IMG/VR virus record: IMGVR_UViG_646206259_000006
Length of the DNA stretch: 17,564 bases
Reading direction: 5' to 3' (one strand)
DNA from: a virus
Lineage: Duplodnaviria; Heunggongvirae; Uroviricota; Caudoviricetes
The notes below the pieces were generated by a model. That model was given only the letters and a program-made list of their open reading frames with translations. It was not told the origin of the DNA and searched no databases. Of the stretch, positions 1,123 through 9,085 are shown piece after piece. A program made the position numbers and the translations under genes. Numbering within the stretch: the first letter of the stretch is position 1; each line of letters begins with the position of its first letter.

Positions 1123-1341
1123 ATGACAGCACACAAGCCAGCATCATCAGCTATCCCAACAACTGGATACATCCGTCGCTTTCGCATGCCGGAATTGCTA
1201 GGTGTTTCACTGCCTACTATTGATAGATGGGTTAAAAATGGCACTCTTCCACGCCCAGTGAAGCTAACAGATAACGTGACTGCGTTTGATGCGGTGGAAA
1301 TTAATAACTGGCTGGCAGAACGCCGCGGGAAGGTGGCCTGA
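1123..1341 (+). CDS. alpA: AlpA-family phage transcriptional regulator / excision-associated DNA-binding protein (72 aa)
   Basis: Small protein with the characteristic AlpA/prophage CP4-57 regulator HTH segment (RMPELLGVSLPTIDRWVKNGTLPRPVKL...NVTAFDAVEINNWL). GAGAGG RBS about 10 nt upstream. Stop overlaps the next start. Confidence 0.8.
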   Translation: MTAHKPASSAIPTTGYIRRFRMPELLGVSLPTIDRWVKNGTLPRPVKLTDNVTAFDAVEINNWLAERRGKVA

Positions 1342-1784: not shown

Positions 1785-2618
1785 ATGAACATCGAAAAAA
1801 GCAGATTAATTTCTGAGGCCGCCCCTCATCTGAACGCCTCTCTGGGCACAATTAACGGTAATGAATTTGCCGCAATTGTCCCGGTTATTTCTGGTCATAT
1901 AGGTGGGCGTGAAACCAATATTGTTAGCGCAAAAGCGTTACACAAAGCGTTGGGCGTGGGAAAAGACTTCTCTACATGGATCACTGATCGCATCTCTGAA
2001 TATGACTTCACCATTGGGCACGATTACTCAGTCCATAAAACAATTTCCCCAAATTTGGGGAAAAGCCCGAATGGCGCGGCTTACAGCAAGATTAAGCACT
2101 CTGGCAGACCCGGCAAAGACTATCTGTTAAGTGTCGGAATGGCGAAAGAACTGGCAATGATCGAACGCAATGATCAGGGTCGCGCTATCCGTCGTTATTT
2201 CATCCAGTGCGAGGAAGAATTACAGCGTACCGTGCCTGAAATCGCCGCCCGCTATCGTCGCCAGCTAAAAGCCCGTATCAGTGCCGCAAACAACTTTAAG
2301 CCAATGTGCGATGCGCTGAACATGGCCCGTGCCGAGCAGGGGAAAACGACGCAGCAACACCACTACACAAACGAGAGCAATATGATTTCTCGTATCGTTC
2401 TTGGTGGGCTAACTGCTAAGCAGTGGGCGCGGATAAATGGCTATTCTGGCGAACCTCGCGACCATATGAACGCAGAACAGCTTGAGCACCTCTCATATCT
2501 CGAAAGCACCAATATCACGTTAATTGATATGGGCATGGAATATGAGCAGCGCAAAGGAGAACTCACCCACCTGTCGCAACGCTGGCTCGCCAAGCGTCTG
2601 GAGGCGCTCAATGTCTAA
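1785..2618 (+). CDS. Phage antirepressor-like protein (AntA/KilA-C-type), 277 aa
   Basis: GGAG RBS upstream. Sequence flavour of AntA-type antirepressor N-domain (…MIERNDQGRAIRRYFIQCEEEL…). Assignment is from memory of the family, not a search. Confidence 0.6.
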   Translation: MNIEKSRLISEAAPHLNASLGTINGNEFAAIVPVISGHIGGRETNIVSAKALHKALGVGKDFSTWITDRISEYDFTIGHDYSVHKTISPNLGKSPNGAAYSKIKHSGRPGKDYLLSVGMAKELAMIERNDQGRAIRRYFIQCEEELQRTVPEIAARYRRQLKARISAANNFKPMCDALNMARAEQGKTTQQHHYTNESNMISRIVLGGLTAKQWARINGYSGEPRDHMNAEQLEHLSYLESTNITLIDMGMEYEQRKGELTHLSQRWLAKRLEALNV

Positions 2619-2790
2619 GCCAACAGGAATACCACAACCACAAAAACGCTACAAAGATGCCCACGGAGCACTCGTTACTGTCGAAAGCGTGTCTCACAAC
2701 CGAGTGACGTTTTATCGCGACGGGTATCAATCGCCATGCGTACAACCGCTGGCGCGTTTCATGAAGGAGTTCGCGGAGGTTAACCAATGA
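2611..2790 (+). CDS. Small hypothetical protein (59 aa), possibly DUF4222-like
   Basis: ATG at 2611 preceded by GGAGG (2600-2604) and overlapping the upstream stop. The ORF-track call from 2524 is probably an over-extension. Confidence 0.5.
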   Translation: MSKPTGIPQPQKRYKDAHGALVTVESVSHNRVTFYRDGYQSPCVQPLARFMKEFAEVNQ

Positions 2791-3854
2791 TACCCGTCCA
2801 GAAGAAGACATTTTCACTGGCTGGTATGTCGCCAAAATCCAGCAATATGACAGCAAAGTCAGACATTAATACAGCAGATACAAGCAAAGTTTATCATTTG
2901 CTGGTGGTAGGAGCGGATGCCTTAACTATGTCAGAAATTACGGTCGATGGTGTTAGCGTTGAGAAGGTCAGCGGCTATGCCAGAGAATTTCTGGTCGTAG
3001 ATGGCTTTCTCTGCTCGTGTAGTGACTCCACAAAAACCTTCGTCCACGCGCGTGACGTTAACGAAATGAGCGCGATGTACTGTGCTTCTGGTTCTTCCAA
3101 TAGTGAGTTTTCGGAGTCCATAAAAAAGAGCTTGCCGTTATGCGGCAACACGGTTTATGGTTATAAGGCACCTCATAAAACGGGTGCCGGGATTGGCGTC
3201 CTGAAAATTCTGAAGGCGACATATGACGCGCCGAGCGTCTTTTTTTATGTCGTAGGTCTGACTCACCCATTTTTTGGGCGTTGGTGTATAATCCAGCGCC
3301 TTTGTCAATCAATGGTGGCTCAGGCGGGGGCTTCTTCGGAAGCGCCGGTATCCTTCAGAGCCGGTTACGCCAACCCTGTCTGGGCTACCACCAGCGAAAT
3401 TGGCGTTTCCGGTGGTAGCGTAACCTGCTATCTGAAGGAGGCTGCCACATGCTGGCTACTACCCCTACCCAAAAAACGCAATTTATCTGGATTATCGCCG
3501 CAGTTCGCCGCGATTGCCCGACAATTACCGCCAAAATTCATCATATTGCTGCCGAGTCTGAACGCGATGCTCGCCGTTCTCTGGTGCGCGATCACATCTG
3601 CTTTTTTGCTGGTCGTATCCGCATGGAGGTGGCACATGATTAAAAACTACGATGTGCATATGGATCCCCTCGAACGCACAAGCCAGATCATCACACTGAC
3701 AGAAGTGATTAACGACATTCTGGTGAGCAACTCTCCCTCACGAGACGAAAGACTGAAGGCGTTACTCGCGATATTGGATCTCGCCGTTCGTGACGTTCAT
3801 TTCCTGCTGGAAGGTGGCGAAATGCCAGTAAAAACGGGGGCAACCAATGAATAA
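2787..3854 (+). CDS. Hypothetical protein (355 aa as an uninterrupted ORF); 3' third may be a separate small gene starting at ATG 3636
   Basis: ATGA start/stop overlap with the upstream gene and GGAGG RBS at 2775-2779. No in-frame stop until 3854. The stretch about 3240-3636 is W/C/L-rich like a non-coding frame. ATG 3636 has its own GGAGG RBS. Confidence 0.45.
3449..3643 (+). CDS. Alternative small ORF (64 aa) nested out of frame inside the 2787..3854 ORF
   Basis: Strong RBS GAAGGAGG (3434-3441) 7 nt before the ATG. Protein-like composition. Frame opens after a TAG at 3416-3418. Cannot be real together with an intact long ORF unless genes overlap extensively. Confidence 0.3.
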   Translation: MLATTPTQKTQFIWIIAAVRRDCPTITAKIHHIAAESERDARRSLVRDHICFFAGRIRMEVAHD

Positions 3855-4041
3855 CTCAATTAATACCCCTCGCCTTACGTCCGCACTTCAATTAATCGAG
3901 CAAGCAGCGGCTGTCCTGGTTGCTGTCAGTCTTTCGGCTGAAGAAATGGACGCTACTGATGTCGTGGATGCGATTAAAGCGTGCTCATCTTTGGTTAACG
4001 ATGCCCGTGCAGAGCTGGTAATTCTTGGGGGTGAAAAATGA
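3847..4041 (+). CDS. Small hypothetical protein (64 aa)
   Basis: ATG overlaps the upstream stop (ATGAATAA). Part of a coupled chain of small ORFs. Confidence 0.5.
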   Translation: MNNSINTPRLTSALQLIEQAAAVLVAVSLSAEEMDATDVVDAIKACSSLVNDARAELVILGGEK

Positions 4042-4301
4042 ATATCAACTTAATTTATCGTCATCCGTGTGAGCTGGAAATTGAATCATTGCTGAGCCGT
4101 GAAGAGCCATATCCAGACACATTCACTCTTGCAGATCGCACGACTGAACGGCTTACCAGAGCGCGCACAGGTCTGGTTCATGTGATGAATGAGATTCTTC
4201 CATCGGTGGGAGGGGAACAGGCGACAGTAATCAATAGCTGGCTACAAAAAGTTACCTCCCTGATAGATATCAGTTTAATCGATGTGGAGAGTGCGAAATG
4301 A
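4038..4301 (+). CDS. Small hypothetical protein (87 aa)
   Basis: ATGA start/stop overlap with the upstream ORF. Confidence 0.5.
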   Translation: MNINLIYRHPCELEIESLLSREEPYPDTFTLADRTTERLTRARTGLVHVMNEILPSVGGEQATVINSWLQKVTSLIDISLIDVESAK

Positions 4302-4519
4302 CCAACATCCAGCTCATTGAAGCGCAATGTCGCATCGAACAGGTTCAGACTGTTTTAGGGTTCTGGCTTGAAGGGGCCAGCCCAAGCAACAGAGACAAGT
4401 TAATGATTGGCGCGGTTATGTCACTGCTCAATGGCGTACCAGAAGCTATTCAGGAAGCGGACGAATTGTTGGGCAAATATGAGTTACAGAATCATTCAGG
4501 CGAGGCGAAACATGAATAA
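4298..4519 (+). CDS. Small hypothetical protein (73 aa)
   Basis: ATGA start/stop overlap with the upstream ORF. GGAGAG upstream. Confidence 0.5.
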   Translation: MTNIQLIEAQCRIEQVQTVLGFWLEGASPSNRDKLMIGAVMSLLNGVPEAIQEADELLGKYELQNHSGEAKHE

Positions 4520-5114
4520 TTTCTTAACCTTCCATGCAGAAGCAACGCCTGACGGCGTAAACATCATGCACCGCAGCAACAATGGCATGACAGAACGCGT
4601 TGAGACCGTCTCATATATTGATGCCGTAAATCGTCTGGATGCCGGGGATTATGACGATAAACCAGATGAAGGCATGTTTATACATCTCGCTATTGCCAGT
4701 GGCGGCAACCAGGGATATTTCGATTACACATCACAGCATCACGTGATTATGTGGCGCTGGCTGATAGCAACAGCATTAATCAATGAAATGAGAAAGGAAA
4801 ACGGCACCGTCAGCATTATTGATGACAGTGGCAATCATTCCGTGGTTTCTGTTTATTCCAATGGCATCGTCGCCATGCCGCTGTATCCAGTAGCAGAGCG
4901 CCTCGCTATGGCAAACAACATTGAGGGCGCAATGATCGAGAAATATGGTGTTGATGTCGGAACAAAGAATGCCATCATTTTTTACAGCAACATGTTCGAT
5001 GTCGAACAGGGAACACTCACTTCGTTTGGGCGAGAAGTGCTTGCCGATCTTCACAACAGCTTTATTGCCGAACTAAACGAAAACGGCATCCCAGAAGCAC
5101 CAGTGACGCACTAA
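4512..5114 (+). CDS. Hypothetical protein (200 aa); alternative longer start at 4407
   Basis: ATG 4512 overlaps the upstream stop (ATGAATAA), matching the coupling pattern of the operon. The 4407 start would overlap the previous gene by about 110 nt. Confidence 0.55.
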   Translation: MNNFLTFHAEATPDGVNIMHRSNNGMTERVETVSYIDAVNRLDAGDYDDKPDEGMFIHLAIASGGNQGYFDYTSQHHVIMWRWLIATALINEMRKENGTVSIIDDSGNHSVVSVYSNGIVAMPLYPVAERLAMANNIEGAMIEKYGVDVGTKNAIIFYSNMFDVEQGTLTSFGREVLADLHNSFIAELNENGIPEAPVTH

Positions 5115-5126
5115 ACGGGGGCCAGA

Positions 5127-7478
5127 ATGCGAAACATTGATCTTATCCGTCAGGTTATCAGTGCGTCTGAAAACAACTGGCCTCATGTGCTGGGCTGCCT
5201 GAACATAAATGTCCCTGACTCTCCGCGCCGTCATGCTCCCTGCCCTGCATGTGGGGGCAAAGACCGATTCCGGTTCGATGACAACGGGCGCGGTAGCTTC
5301 ATCTGTAATCAGTGCGGCGCTGGTGATGGGCTGGATTTAATTAAACGCGTAAATAACTGCGACACAACAGAGGCGGCGCTGCTTGCCGCTGATGTTCTGG
5401 GTATTGATTACCGGACAACGGAAACACCAGAAGCCACCAGCCAGAAACGGGAACAACTGGAAACCGAGCGCCAGCGACGCGAACAGGAGCGCCTGAAAAG
5501 GGCAGAGAAGGACGAACAACAAAGACGGGATACGTTTTCCCGTCAGTTTGATGACATGCGCAGAAAGGCTGTAAACGGCAAATCTGATTATCTGGTTGCG
5601 AAAGGGGTAGGTGATTTTACATTCCCTGTGTTGCCCGATGGATCTCTGTTGCTGGCGCTGGTGGATAAATCCGGCGCAGTTACAGCAGCACAGACTATTA
5701 CCTCACATGGTGAAAAAAGACTCCTGACAGGTTCAGCAAAGCGAGGGGCATATCACGCCATAAACGCACAGAAACGACCTCACAGCATCATAATTGCTGA
5801 GGGGGTGGCTACCGCCCTGTCGTGCCATTTAATTCGCCCTGACGCAATGACAGTGGCAGCAATCGACGCTGGCAACCTGTTGCCAGTAGCGGAAGTCATG
5901 CGCAGAACATATCCACAGGCACAAATCATCATTGCCGCAGATAACGATCACCAGCAAGGAAACTCCGAAAGTGGAGGGATCAACACGGGGAAAGATGCCG
6001 CAGAGAGGGCCGCTATTTCCGTAGCTGGCTGGGTGTCTCTGCCACCGACTGACTATAAAGCCGACTGGAACGACTATCACCAACAACACGGGCTGGCGGC
6101 AGCCACAGCAGCATTTAAAGATTCGATGTACCAGCCACGGGGGAAAGGGGCGCAGGTGAAAAATCACAAACAGTCAGTCGGGGCGCTGAATGAGATCAGT
6201 TCTGGCGAGGTGTTAAGCGATGATGAAATTGCTGTCCTCGAAGAAATCAACCGGACGTTTACGCATGTCACCATCGGCGGGAAACACAAGGTGGTGTCGC
6301 TAAAGCCTTCTCAAACCGGCGGTGTATCGCACGTTTTCGAGGATTTATCACAATTTCAGCATTATTTTCATCATAAACCGAGAGTCGCCAGAAAGCTGGC
6401 GGGATCGGCGTGGCTGTCATGGAGTGGGAAGAACTACAAGCCAGGAGGCGTAGGATTTTATCCAGTACCAGACAAATGCCCTGACGATGTTTTTAATCTG
6501 TATGAGGGGCTGGCACTGGAACCAATTGAAGGAGATTGCACGGTATACCTTAATCACCTGTTGCAGGTTGTCTGTGCCGGTAATGAAGAGGCATACCAAT
6601 ATCTTATCCAGTGGATGGCGCACATTATCCAAAAGCCTGATGAAAAACCGTCCGTGGCAATCGTGATGAAATCTGTCCCGGGCACAGGGAAAGGCACAAC
6701 GGTTAAACCGCTGCTGCAAATACTGGGGCAGTACGCCGCCCACATTAACGGGGCGGGACATATTTCAGGGCGCTTCAATTCAATACTTGCTAACAAGCTA
6801 CTGGTATTTGCTGACGAAGTGACGATCCACAAGCCGTCTGAAGCTGACAGACTTAAAGCGATTATTAGCGAACCGACGTTTAACCTTGAGCGCAAGGGAA
6901 TTGATGCTGAACCAATGCCGAATTTTGCCCGGTTGATATTTGCCAGTAACAGCACACAGGTATTACAGGCAGGGATAAGAGAGCGCCGCTATCTCGTGCT
7001 TGAGCCATCTCCTGAAAAAGCACAGAGCCGGGAGTATTTTGATCGGCTGTACAGTTGGCTTAATGATGGCGGTGCCGCAAAGTTGCTTTGGCATCTTAAA
7101 GGGGTGGATCTCTCAGGTTTTGACCCTCAACGAGCGCCACAGACCGATGCCTTACGTGAAGAAATCTTGCTGGGGCTGTCTGGCGTTGAATTGTTTCTTT
7201 ATGGCGAGCTAATCAATGAACCTCCGTTTAATGGCGAAGTCCGTTTGTTTGCAAAGGATATGGTTAGTCGGTTTGTAGCGTGGTCGCTTGAGCGTGGGGA
7301 AAAGCTTAAAGAACCAGCTGCCAGATCACTACTGGGTAAATCACTTGCACAAATGGGGCTGGTGAAGCATGGAAGACCAGACCGAGGGAATGGCGTGTTC
7401 TACGAACTACCAGAGGTCGGAGTTCTACAGGCTGCGTTTGCCCGTCTGATCGGTATGGGGGGTTATGATGTTTTTTAA
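5127..7478 (+). CDS. P4-alpha-like primase-helicase (783 aa)
   Basis: N-terminal CxxC…CxxC zinc-binding motif (CPACGG…CNQCGAG). TOPRIM-like segment (IIIAEGVATALS, IIIAADNDHQ). C-terminal P-loop (VPGTGKGT) and DExx-like box (LLVFADEV). Iteron cluster immediately downstream. Confidence 0.85.
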   Translation: MRNIDLIRQVISASENNWPHVLGCLNINVPDSPRRHAPCPACGGKDRFRFDDNGRGSFICNQCGAGDGLDLIKRVNNCDTTEAALLAADVLGIDYRTTETPEATSQKREQLETERQRREQERLKRAEKDEQQRRDTFSRQFDDMRRKAVNGKSDYLVAKGVGDFTFPVLPDGSLLLALVDKSGAVTAAQTITSHGEKRLLTGSAKRGAYHAINAQKRPHSIIIAEGVATALSCHLIRPDAMTVAAIDAGNLLPVAEVMRRTYPQAQIIIAADNDHQQGNSESGGINTGKDAAERAAISVAGWVSLPPTDYKADWNDYHQQHGLAAATAAFKDSMYQPRGKGAQVKNHKQSVGALNEISSGEVLSDDEIAVLEEINRTFTHVTIGGKHKVVSLKPSQTGGVSHVFEDLSQFQHYFHHKPRVARKLAGSAWLSWSGKNYKPGGVGFYPVPDKCPDDVFNLYEGLALEPIEGDCTVYLNHLLQVVCAGNEEAYQYLIQWMAHIIQKPDEKPSVAIVMKSVPGTGKGTTVKPLLQILGQYAAHINGAGHISGRFNSILANKLLVFADEVTIHKPSEADRLKAIISEPTFNLERKGIDAEPMPNFARLIFASNSTQVLQAGIRERRYLVLEPSPEKAQSREYFDRLYSWLNDGGAAKLLWHLKGVDLSGFDPQRAPQTDALREEILLGLSGVELFLYGELINEPPFNGEVRLFAKDMVSRFVAWSLERGEKLKEPAARSLLGKSLAQMGLVKHGRPDRGNGVFYELPEVGVLQAAFARLIGMGGYDVF

Positions 7479-7885: not shown

Positions 7886-8612
7886 CTATTGCATACTGCA
7901 GGGAATGACCAGAACGGAGCGCGAAGAATTAAAAAGTTTCGCTACACAGTGCGGGAATGCTGGCGACATCCAAAGTCTGGAACGCACTTTAATTATGATT
8001 GCGCACTGGATGCGCCAGGGGCAAAGAGTTTCATTTACTGAATATGCCAGCCAGTGGACAGAGGCACAGCGCGAACGGAGCGACGGTAATCACTCAACAC
8101 CCGAAATGGCGAAGCAATGGCCTTTCAGTGGTAAACGCTGTATCAGTCCCGGTGGTTCAGATTATTACCCTGCTGGTGTGGGAGATGAGCCATGTTGTGA
8201 CGAGACTGAAATCCGCCACGCAGTGACAGTAATTACCGCTGAATACCCACAATTTAACCTTGACGGACTGGCGCTCCACAACCGGAATGCGGACTGGGAA
8301 AACCCGCTTGATAACCCGTCATTTATCGTATCGGCGAAAAGCTGCCTGAGATGGATCAGAGACAACGGGATGAGTAATGCCCAGATTGAGAGCTTCCCGC
8401 AGGATAACCCCACATCTGACACGTTGAAGCATGAAGTGGAGCGATATAACCAGATAAACCACCAGCACAGTGATCACCCGCACTATATCCCCAACGGAGC
8501 ATTTATTGCGGCGATGGTGGCAAGCGGCTACAAGGTTAAGCCAGCGGGAAGAATGAACGCATTTTTCAATATTTCAAAAAAGGGATTATGTGCTGCTATG
8601 GGTAAAAATTAA
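7875..8612 (+). CDS. Hypothetical protein (245 aa)
   Basis: GAGAGG RBS. ATG overlaps the upstream stop. No recognisable domain. Sits between the two iteron clusters. Confidence 0.55.
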   Translation: MNNNYCILQGMTRTEREELKSFATQCGNAGDIQSLERTLIMIAHWMRQGQRVSFTEYASQWTEAQRERSDGNHSTPEMAKQWPFSGKRCISPGGSDYYPAGVGDEPCCDETEIRHAVTVITAEYPQFNLDGLALHNRNADWENPLDNPSFIVSAKSCLRWIRDNGMSNAQIESFPQDNPTSDTLKHEVERYNQINHQHSDHPHYIPNGAFIAAMVASGYKVKPAGRMNAFFNISKKGLCAAMGKN

Positions 8613-8617
8613 ATAAA

Positions 8618-8721
8618 TGGTACAGGTCTGTACAGGTGGGGAGAGGTCATTTTTACCCACCTGTACCACCTGCAGGCCGCGCCACACAAGGGTTTGTGAC
8701 ATGGTGGTACAGGTGGTACAG
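8618..8721. repeat. Iteron cluster 2 (crr-like): at least four copies of the GGTACAGG/CCTGTACC core in both orientations
   Basis: Direct reading: TGGTACAGGT 8618-8627, CTGTACAGGTGG 8628-8639, CCACCTGTACCACC 8657-8670, GGTGGTACAGGTGGTACAG 8703-8721. Same core as cluster 1. Confidence 0.65.
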
Positions 8722-9085
8722 CAAAAACAGCGATTTTCTTTATAAGGTATGTTTTGCTCATCTGGCAGACGGAGGTATTCGCTGCGGTTTGGCACATAGC
8801 CCAGAACAGCAAAGAGTTTTACGAGACTTTTGTAAAATCCAGTGTACAAGGGCGTGACGTTTTTGAAGGTGAGCACTACGAAATTTTCGTAGTTCAAAAA
8901 ATAGCCTCTGAGATGTTGTTATGCCTGTTCAGCAAACCATCCGCATAGCTGATCGCGAATCAAATTACCAATGGAGCCAGAAGCAAGGGCAGAACTGGAA
9001 AGCGCCTGCCGTGAAGAGTAATGCGACTCCATAAATATAGTTTTTAGAGTCCATAAAAAAACTGTCAAAACCTGACATACAGAAC

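Follow-up and report, generated by a model that had tools for sequence, protein, structure and literature searches.

In this work, we have analysed positions 2787–3854 of a 17,564-nucleotide (nt) stretch of viral DNA (Caudoviricetes; IMG/VR record IMGVR_UViG_646206259_000006; this whole stretch is called the window), where one long open reading frame (ORF) runs over two non-coding RNAs and two small genes. The closest described systems are the immI locus of phages P1 and P7, the immunity region of P4 and the isrK-orf45-anrP-isrJ region of Gifsy-1. The immI locus, in the work of Citron and Schuster (1990) and of Riedel et al. (1993), reportedly comprises the c4 antisense RNA, its a1/b1 and a'/b' targets, icd and the ant1/ant2 genes, and we know of no read-through ORF described for P1. 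The P4 region has the nested genes eta and kil together with seqA, the CI RNA, seqC and the internal promoter PLE. PMC10111431 describes a constitutive promoter inside eta, whose transcript, terminated via CI/seqA interactions, yields CI. It presents Kil as a truncated Eta, restricts translation of full-length Eta to transcripts of an upstream promoter, with coupling to the alpA homologue, and states, citing Forti et al. 1999 (J Bacteriol 181:5225), that 'Eta translation prevents termination'. For Gifsy-1, Hershko-Shalev et al. 2016 (PMC4825925) regard IsrK as structurally homologous to P4 seqA.

Our analysis places the window locus in a known kind of regulatory locus, the P4 eta/kil-CI-seqA design, by which it is largely explained; its arrangement of frames is a variant of that design. 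We consider it probable that 2787–3854 is the immunity/derepression switch of a P4-like satellite or of a phage-inducible chromosomal island (PICI), with a read-through frame of the P4 eta type, and that both the long frame and the elements nested in it are real. The earlier note on this DNA had seen the open frame and had proposed as alternatives a single long protein, a frameshift, overlapping genes, or a fusion that arose when a stop was lost. The frame indeed has no in-frame stop before 3852–3854, and the impression that 3240–3636 resembles an out-of-frame translation is borne out by its composition, since residues 152–283 contain 4.5% tryptophan, 3.8% cysteine and 12.1% leucine, for which five long genes of the window, annotated or matched to a family, give 1.1%, 0.8% and 8.3%. 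This odd middle part is explained by two non-coding RNAs that lie there and that the earlier note had missed, along with their target sites.

The first of them is an IsrK/P4 seqA-like leader RNA ending in an intrinsic terminator (stem 3225–3239, then T7), and the second is a C4, or P4 CI-type, antisense immunity RNA (Table 1). Both were found in 19 of 19 representative relatives and in P4; the Rfam family RF03163 stayed below its gathering score in the window and reached it in some relatives. The recognition elements a2 and b2 of C4 are complementary to the sites a1 and b1 in IsrK and to a' and b' downstream. Pairing and covariation were followed in 53 distinct sequences, some taken from E. 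coli relatives and some from a set of 80 viral-contig loci selected by Icd similarity only. The 27 internal pairs of the three-helix C4 structure are 100% paired, with 13 of them changed on both sides; a2:a' is 98.8% paired (7 of 8 pairs changed on both sides) and b2:b' 100% (6 of 7), which makes 42 pairs, 99.8% paired, of which 26 are changed on both sides. For the IsrK sites, the 15 pairs of a1:a2 and b1:b2 are paired in 99.5% of cells, and 13 of the 15 are changed on both sides. Control structures slid by 1–3 columns were 30–48% paired (34–47% for the IsrK-site pairing). All three copies of the sites, in IsrK, in C4 and downstream, are thereby shown to co-vary between immunity types, of which we count 16 a-types and 9 b-types in 23 combinations; inside one E. 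coli island family, TCTGAAGG / CCTTCAGA / TCTGAAGG is replaced by TCGAATGG / CCATTCGA / TCGAATGG. Judged by their predicted pairing, the a and b types are different immunity specificities. In many of them a1 and a' differ by an A-to-G change (for example GTACGAGG and GTACAAGG), and because this change in a1 turns an A-U pair with C4 into G-U, weaker binding of C4 is predicted at the IsrK site than at the ribosome-binding site.

Is the long frame anything more than an opening left by chance? Our results show that it is not a chance ORF and that it is kept stop-free and coupled at both ends. Its ATG overlaps the TGA of the DUF4222 gene as ATGA at 2787, with a GGAGG at 2775–2779, and its TAA overlaps the start of the next gene (ATG at 3847) as ATGAATAA. 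Frames were analysed in 78 of the Icd-fetched loci, the window counted; these loci share ancestry, and their counts are therefore not independent. In 77 of the 78, one frame is open across the RNAs, running from 350–720 nt upstream of icd through IsrK and C4, while the other two close within 100–250 nt, and in all 77 the open frame has the same phase with respect to C4. The IsrK-to-C4 distances of 140, 101, 125, 128, 131 and, in P4, 185 nt all differ by multiples of 3, and the sole exception, a locus (L073) with a distance of 139, is the only one without an open frame. Both ends of the long ORF overlap neighbouring ORFs in 64 of the 77 loci, the start typically as GGAGG, a 7-nt spacer and ATGA.

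E. coli relatives belonging to four immunity types also have this frame open, as do Klebsiella homologues (48–66% identity), whose ORFs have ~330 codons; relatives at 92–98% identity with different immunity types carry the 1068-nt ORF, and a 1029-nt in-frame deletion variant is found too. This breadth decides against a recent strain-specific fusion in which a stop loss or a frameshift joined an upstream gene to the small downstream one, which we hold to be extremely unlikely even though natural frameshift variants occur nearby (a 10-bp duplication in icd, see below). Both alternatives of this kind in the earlier note, fusion by stop loss and frameshift, are ruled out as peculiarities of this strain by the relatives, the Klebsiella homologues and the 77 of 78 loci.

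Two configurations, set by the C4-to-icd distance modulo 3, were observed. In the first, or P4 type (31 of 78 loci), the open frame coincides with that of icd and closes at the same stop; in the second, or window type (47 of 78), it enters the +1 frame of icd, mostly ending 170–210 nt later. The +1 frame of icd has no stop in 47 of 47 window-type loci, whereas it has one in 25 of the 31 loci of the other type (open in 6 of 31), and the +2 frame is closed in all loci. Counted over distinct sequences, the +1 frame is open/closed in 37/0 against 6/18 (Fisher 1e-10), and over 90%-identity clusters in 8/0 against 6/7 (p = 0.018); when Icd synonymous codons are resampled, the average probability of an open frame is 0.31, with 0.41 for the window. 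Some close relatives (L025 and L026; L071 and L044) have different configurations because of 1-nt length differences between the icd Shine-Dalgarno sequence and the ATG. In two distant relatives (L085 and L088), the frame continues to ~+1062 past the icd start, in ORFs of 484–523 codons, and the long frame is fused to a larger downstream protein, not to a small gene.

These counts also bear on the view that the long ORF is an artefact of annotation, where a frame happens to be open across RNA and out-of-frame coding sequence and only the RNAs and the small genes are real. We regard this view as quite improbable: the frame is open over icd in 47 of 47 loci compared with 6 of 31 in the other configuration, with a null near 0.3; spacer lengths change by multiples of 3; starts and stops overlap with neighbours in 64 of 77 loci, with a GGAGG Shine-Dalgarno; and in the N-terminal part only the long frame is stop-free (0 stops, compared with 7 and 10 in the other two frames). 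It would nevertheless account for the out-of-frame composition and lack of codon periodicity of the middle part, and for the inconsistency of the Prokaryotic Genome Annotation Pipeline (PGAP) among relatives, for which the RefSeq annotation is, depending on the strain, either a single 'ash family protein' or a pseudogene with an Icd-like protein, neither version showing the two RNAs; it also has in its favour that G+C-rich structured RNA is poor in stops, C4 having none in any frame. A separate candidate, that openness comes merely from the stop-poor RNA consensus, was rejected: it may explain the C4 core only, and it fails for the non-conserved spacers, the multiples of 3, the N-terminal 115–125 codons, the coupled ends and the configuration-dependent openness over icd.

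Selection on the nested genes was assessed by pN/pS, the ratio of nonsynonymous to synonymous differences per site, from pairwise Nei-Gojobori counts on ungapped relatives, with the AntA and DUF4222 genes as flanking controls (pN/pS 0.31, with 11/11/26 variable sites at the three codon positions, and 0.23, with 2/4/5, respectively). The Icd-like gene has a pN/pS of 0.25 in its own frame, with variable sites 15/12/42, and the 72-codon ORF one of 0.26, with 2/4/8; because of these own-frame values and coding-type variable sites, we take both nested genes to be real. Both are thus shown to be protein-coding and to overlap as ATGATTAA, which bears out the overlapping genes among the alternatives of the earlier note. 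Codon usage, a check which that note had proposed, scores best in the icd frame over 3449–3635 (+0.28, compared with −0.07 in the long frame) and best in the long frame over the N-terminal part. The strong ribosome-binding site that had been seen ahead of the out-of-frame ORF is the Shine-Dalgarno sequence GAAGGAGG at 3434–3441, 7 nt ahead of the ATG, and the GGAGG noted for the in-frame ATG at 3636 is likewise present. The window Icd is 40% identical to P4 Kil, which matches the same NCBIfam family; it is a homologue of P4 Kil and P1 Icd and a predicted cell-division inhibitor. The 72-aa product has no match in Pfam, NCBIfam or PHROGs; its ORF is kept in the Klebsiella homologues, and in those loci in which the icd stop also closes the long ORF, the start of another ORF, of 59–105 codons, overlaps that stop. 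Some E. coli strains (L003 and L082) carry a 10-bp tandem duplication (TCGCCGCAGT) in icd, at the equivalent of ~3494 of the window, which frameshifts Icd and diverts the long ORF to the reading frame of icd. In these naturally icd-disrupted variants, the protein annotated by PGAP is a 147-aa 'Icd-like' one.

The N-terminal part of the long ORF is probably translated and looks weakly coding. Over 2787–3155 its pN/pS is 0.47, with variable sites 20/10/24; this part is poorly conserved, rich in indels and unalignable between E. coli and Klebsiella, and its 127 aa have no match in Pfam, NCBIfam or PHROGs.

What, then, is the 'ash family protein' of the databases? PF10554 (Phage_ASH) matches aa 124–232 of the long ORF (nt 3156–3482) over the whole model (E 6e-34, 117.2 bits compared with a threshold of 26), a span that begins at the promoter −10, takes in IsrK, C4 and the sites targeted by C4, and reaches the icd start. 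Over the RNA segment the long frame has a pN/pS of 0.64 and variable sites 18/17/19, with no codon periodicity, and over icd a pN/pS of 1.78 and variable sites 17/47/26. The 'Ash' amino-acid conservation is read as a by-product of the RNA, promoter and icd constraints because the variable sites are spread evenly (18/17/19) and the match coincides with the RNA and promoter elements. A structure prediction of the 355 aa with AlphaFold2, from a shallow alignment of 14 homologues, has a mean predicted local distance difference test (pLDDT) of 33.8 and no confident fold: 21–29 in the N-terminal part, 21–52 in the PF10554 segment and, as the maximum of the model, 53–65 at residues 301–330. This result weakly supports the absence of an Ash fold, and in the Ash segment neither the substitution pattern nor, as weak evidence, the prediction gave a sign of selection on amino-acid sequence or fold. 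The single long protein of the earlier note is therefore upheld in part, as a frame that is kept open and coupled at both ends, and fails for 3156–3635, which is not under protein-level selection; similarly, the comparison of orthologues proposed there for 3240–3636 finds the frame conserved open, with an amino-acid conservation that the RNA and icd constraints explain.

A genuine multi-domain 'Ash / Bro-network' protein, for instance a DNA-binding regulator or an anti-repressor, in which the RNAs are merely embedded, is for the same reasons an unlikely reading. The strong PF10554 match over aa 124–232, the hundreds of database homologues annotated as ash family protein, the N-terminal pN/pS of 0.47 and a literature that treats Phage_ASH as a Bro-network domain all speak for it. 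However, the match coincides with the −10, IsrK, C4, its targets and the icd start, the long frame has a pN/pS above 1 over icd, relatives switch the C-terminal part between two frames by 1-nt indels, no confident fold is predicted and the N-terminus cannot be aligned between E. coli and Klebsiella. In P4, PF10554 matches residues 37–161 of the eta-type ORF, across the CI/seqA locus, and epsilon (7888–8175, minus strand, NC_001609.1) is a PF25738 protein, although in a published survey of P4-like satellites the anti-repressor epsilon was represented by the PF10554 profile (PMC8628076). PF10554 hits in satellite surveys therefore probably report the RNA immunity module, not an anti-repressor. 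C4 and IsrK matches inside PICI 'Bro-network' genes are also mentioned in PMC10111431.

Returning to the reading of the locus as a P4 eta-type switch, the likeness to P4 (NC_001609.1) is close. There, a 214-codon ORF (8168–8812, minus strand) spans an IsrK match (8615–8692) and a C4/CI match (8420–8507), and its last 65 residues are Kil, of the Icd-like family (E 1.6e-21). In both, the start of the long ORF precedes the internal promoter, and the ORF is coupled to an upstream gene, crosses the IsrK/seqA-like element and the C4/CI RNA in the same phase relative to C4 (for P4, by ORF and Rfam coordinates), and is matched by PF10554 over the same part; in both, an Icd-like gene lies right after the downstream target site, and a primase-helicase gene further downstream. 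Unlike in the window, Kil is nested in frame in P4 and shares its stop with Eta. The C4-to-icd distance of the window is different by 1 modulo 3, and therefore the long frame overprints icd in the +1 frame; it ends 210 nt later, with an unrelated 72-codon gene nested in frame. The window also differs in its upstream neighbour, which is DUF4222 and not alpA, and in the TATAAT between IsrK and C4, of which P4 has none.

The P1/P7 immI locus shares with the window an RF01695 C4 with two recognition elements that pair with upstream and downstream sites, a downstream site overlapping the icd ribosome-binding site, an icd gene coupled to the next gene, and immunity types that differ by compensating changes in C4 and its targets. 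In the window, the gene coupled to icd is the 72-codon ORF and not an anti-repressor gene, and an AntA-family gene lies upstream. The P1-like phage D6 has a translated Ash-type match. Gifsy-1 resembles the window in its IsrK RNA (RF01394), which has its own promoter, a candidate only in the window, and a leaky intrinsic terminator, in a downstream stable RNA complementary to IsrK (STnc1160, CI-like), and in a small upstream ORF coupled to the next gene, there the anti-repressor gene (PMC4825925). It differs in that a short IsrK activates orf45-anrP translation in trans, Hfq binding and such activation being described for Gifsy-1 only, and in that orf45 is not described as Icd-like and no read-through ORF is described (PMC4825925).

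The candidate internal promoter upstream of IsrK is likely the equivalent of the P4 promoter PLE, which at the equivalent place has TTGCCT, 17 nt and TATAGT. Its −35 TTG and TATGGTTATA are kept across 32 distinct upstream sequences, and the spacer between them varies; it is better conserved than the TATAAT. We infer this promoter from that conservation, a generic promoter scan having passed over it (8/12 matches, below threshold); the same scan did not pick up the TATAAT, which has no −35. The perfect TATAAT had been reported at 3288–3293 and does exist, one base further left. It is present in 32 of 53 distinct relatives and deleted in 7, each time in frame; it may be a second, −35-less promoter for C4, one that appears dispensable in some lineages. 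A ~39-nt in-frame deletion (~3270–3308) removes it, as seen in L008, with an ORF of 1029 compared with 1068 nt, and in L015, with an IsrK-to-C4 distance of 101 compared with 140. An inverted repeat, TTGCCGTTATGCGGCAA (3132–3148), overlaps the −35 and the spacer of the internal promoter and was scanned as a minus-strand terminator-like hairpin with a T run behind it. It may serve as an operator, or it may terminate antisense transcription. At that place, another inverted repeat is found in some relatives, for example TGATGTCCCACGTCATC.

By analogy with P4 and P1, we propose that in the quiescent state transcripts would start at the internal promoter upstream of IsrK and be untranslated. Such transcripts would end at the IsrK terminator or yield C4, and C4 would pair with a' and b', mask the icd ribosome-binding site and block icd translation. 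The block would lead to polarity or termination before the replication genes, by which icd, the coupled small genes and the primase would be shut off. When an upstream promoter fires, the mRNA would include the start at 2787, and ribosomes coupled from the upstream genes would translate across IsrK and C4, then across icd in its +1 frame, and on into the small gene. Such read-through would keep the RNA structures and target sites from acting and would pass ribosomes on to the downstream coupled genes. Expression would thereby become insensitive to immunity, and the long ORF would be mainly a ribosome conduit and not a folded protein.

Several points weigh against this reading. Translation of the long ORF, the promoters, C4 processing and termination are predictions from the sequence, and the mechanism is drawn from a secondary summary of the P4 work. 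The window-type read-through frame gives no Icd C-terminus, unlike that of P4, and because it does not end as Icd the P4 mechanism may not transfer in every detail. The N-terminal 115–125 codons appear to be under some purifying selection, and a protein-level role there is possible. The AlphaFold2 model, with its 14-sequence alignment, is weak evidence. Finally, the loci are related, and with counts that are not independent the test at cluster level reaches only p = 0.018.

Table 1. Features of the long-ORF locus and of the island around it, in window coordinates
Feature	Position	Strand	Details
Tyrosine integrase	island		first in gene order
AlpA-family regulator	1123–1341		1.4 kb upstream of long ORF
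AntA/AntB protein	1785–2618		
DUF4222 protein	2611–2790		directly upstream of long ORF
Long ORF	2787–3854	+	355 codons, ATG start; RefSeq WP_000613400.1 'ash family protein', annotated whole
N-terminal part of long ORF	2787–3131	+	upstream of internal promoter
Candidate constitutive internal promoter (P4 PLE-like)	3132–3161	+	−35 TTGCCG 3132–3137, 18-nt spacer, −10 TATGGT 3156–3161, predicted start ~3168
IsrK / P4 seqA-like leader RNA	3168–3245	+	Rfam RF01394, 67.8 bits, gathering score 50
C4 target b1 in IsrK	3193–3199	+	TTGGCGT
C4 target a1 in IsrK	3209–3216	+	TCTGAAGG
TATAAT between IsrK and C4	3287–3292	+	no −35 match by scan and inspection
C4 / P4 CI-type antisense immunity RNA	3308–3395	+	Rfam RF01695, 79.9 bits, gathering score 45, model positions 1–87 (full length)
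C4 recognition element a2	3352–3359	+	CCTTCAGA, loop of hairpin 2
C4 recognition element b2	3367–3373	+	ACGCCAA, single-stranded
Downstream C4 target b'	3400–3406	+	TTGGCGT
Downstream C4 target a'	3431–3438	+	TCTGAAGG; overlaps icd Shine-Dalgarno GAAGGAGG (3434–3441)
Icd-like gene, 64 aa	3449–3643	+	NCBIfam NF033153, E 1e-19, 70.3 bits, threshold 25; +2 frame relative to long ORF
Nested in-frame small gene, 72 aa	3636–3854	+	own GGAGG 3625–3629; ATG overlaps icd end as ATGATTAA
Four further short ORFs	between long ORF and primase-helicase		
Primase-helicase	5127–7478		

The window is identical to the chromosome of E. coli PA45B (NZ_CP021288.1), where the island lies beside yicC. The island's gene order, integrase, alpA, antA, DUF4222, the long-ORF locus, four short ORFs and the primase-helicase, is that of P4-like satellites and Gram-negative PICIs. 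A chain of overlapping stops and starts links at least eight consecutive ORFs over 2611–5114, with ATGTCTAA at 2611, ATGA at 2787, ATGATTAA at 3636, ATGAATAA at 3847, ATGA at 4038 and 4298, and an 8-nt overlap at 4512. Such junctions suggest that translation is coupled along the whole operon, from antA on and up to a point shortly ahead of the primase. Among the relatives, one (L009, E. coli FDAARGOS_1077) is a recombinant, identical to the window up to ~3290 and unrelated beyond; it is without C4, icd and the 72-codon gene, and its long frame stops at ~3306. Rfam searches also found an ALIL pseudoknot (an IS3-type frameshift element) at 772–888 of L016, where an insertion sequence lies upstream, and an int-alpA RNA in two relatives (L035, 241–308; L088, 306–374), with no int-alpA match in the window.

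What would this locus mean for these satellites? The further idea that the long ORF is selected only for openness and coupled ends, as a ribosome conduit by which expression begun upstream overrides RNA immunity, and that lineages switch repeatedly, by 1-nt indels in the spacer between Shine-Dalgarno and ATG, between an Eta-Icd fusion (P4 type) and an overprinting of icd that avoids the Icd/Kil moiety (window type), stands in our judgement at about even probability. If selection is indeed for openness only, the widely used PF10554 family would be no ordinary protein domain; its model would capture a promoter, two RNAs and the target sites, read as if they were protein. The co-varying a and b sites form a readable code of immunity specificity for these satellites, with 16 × 9 types seen. 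Selection that keeps a frame open and leaves its product unselected would have a clean natural example in the contrast between the two frame configurations, a contrast that bears on the evolution of overlapping genes and of translation-coupled antitermination.

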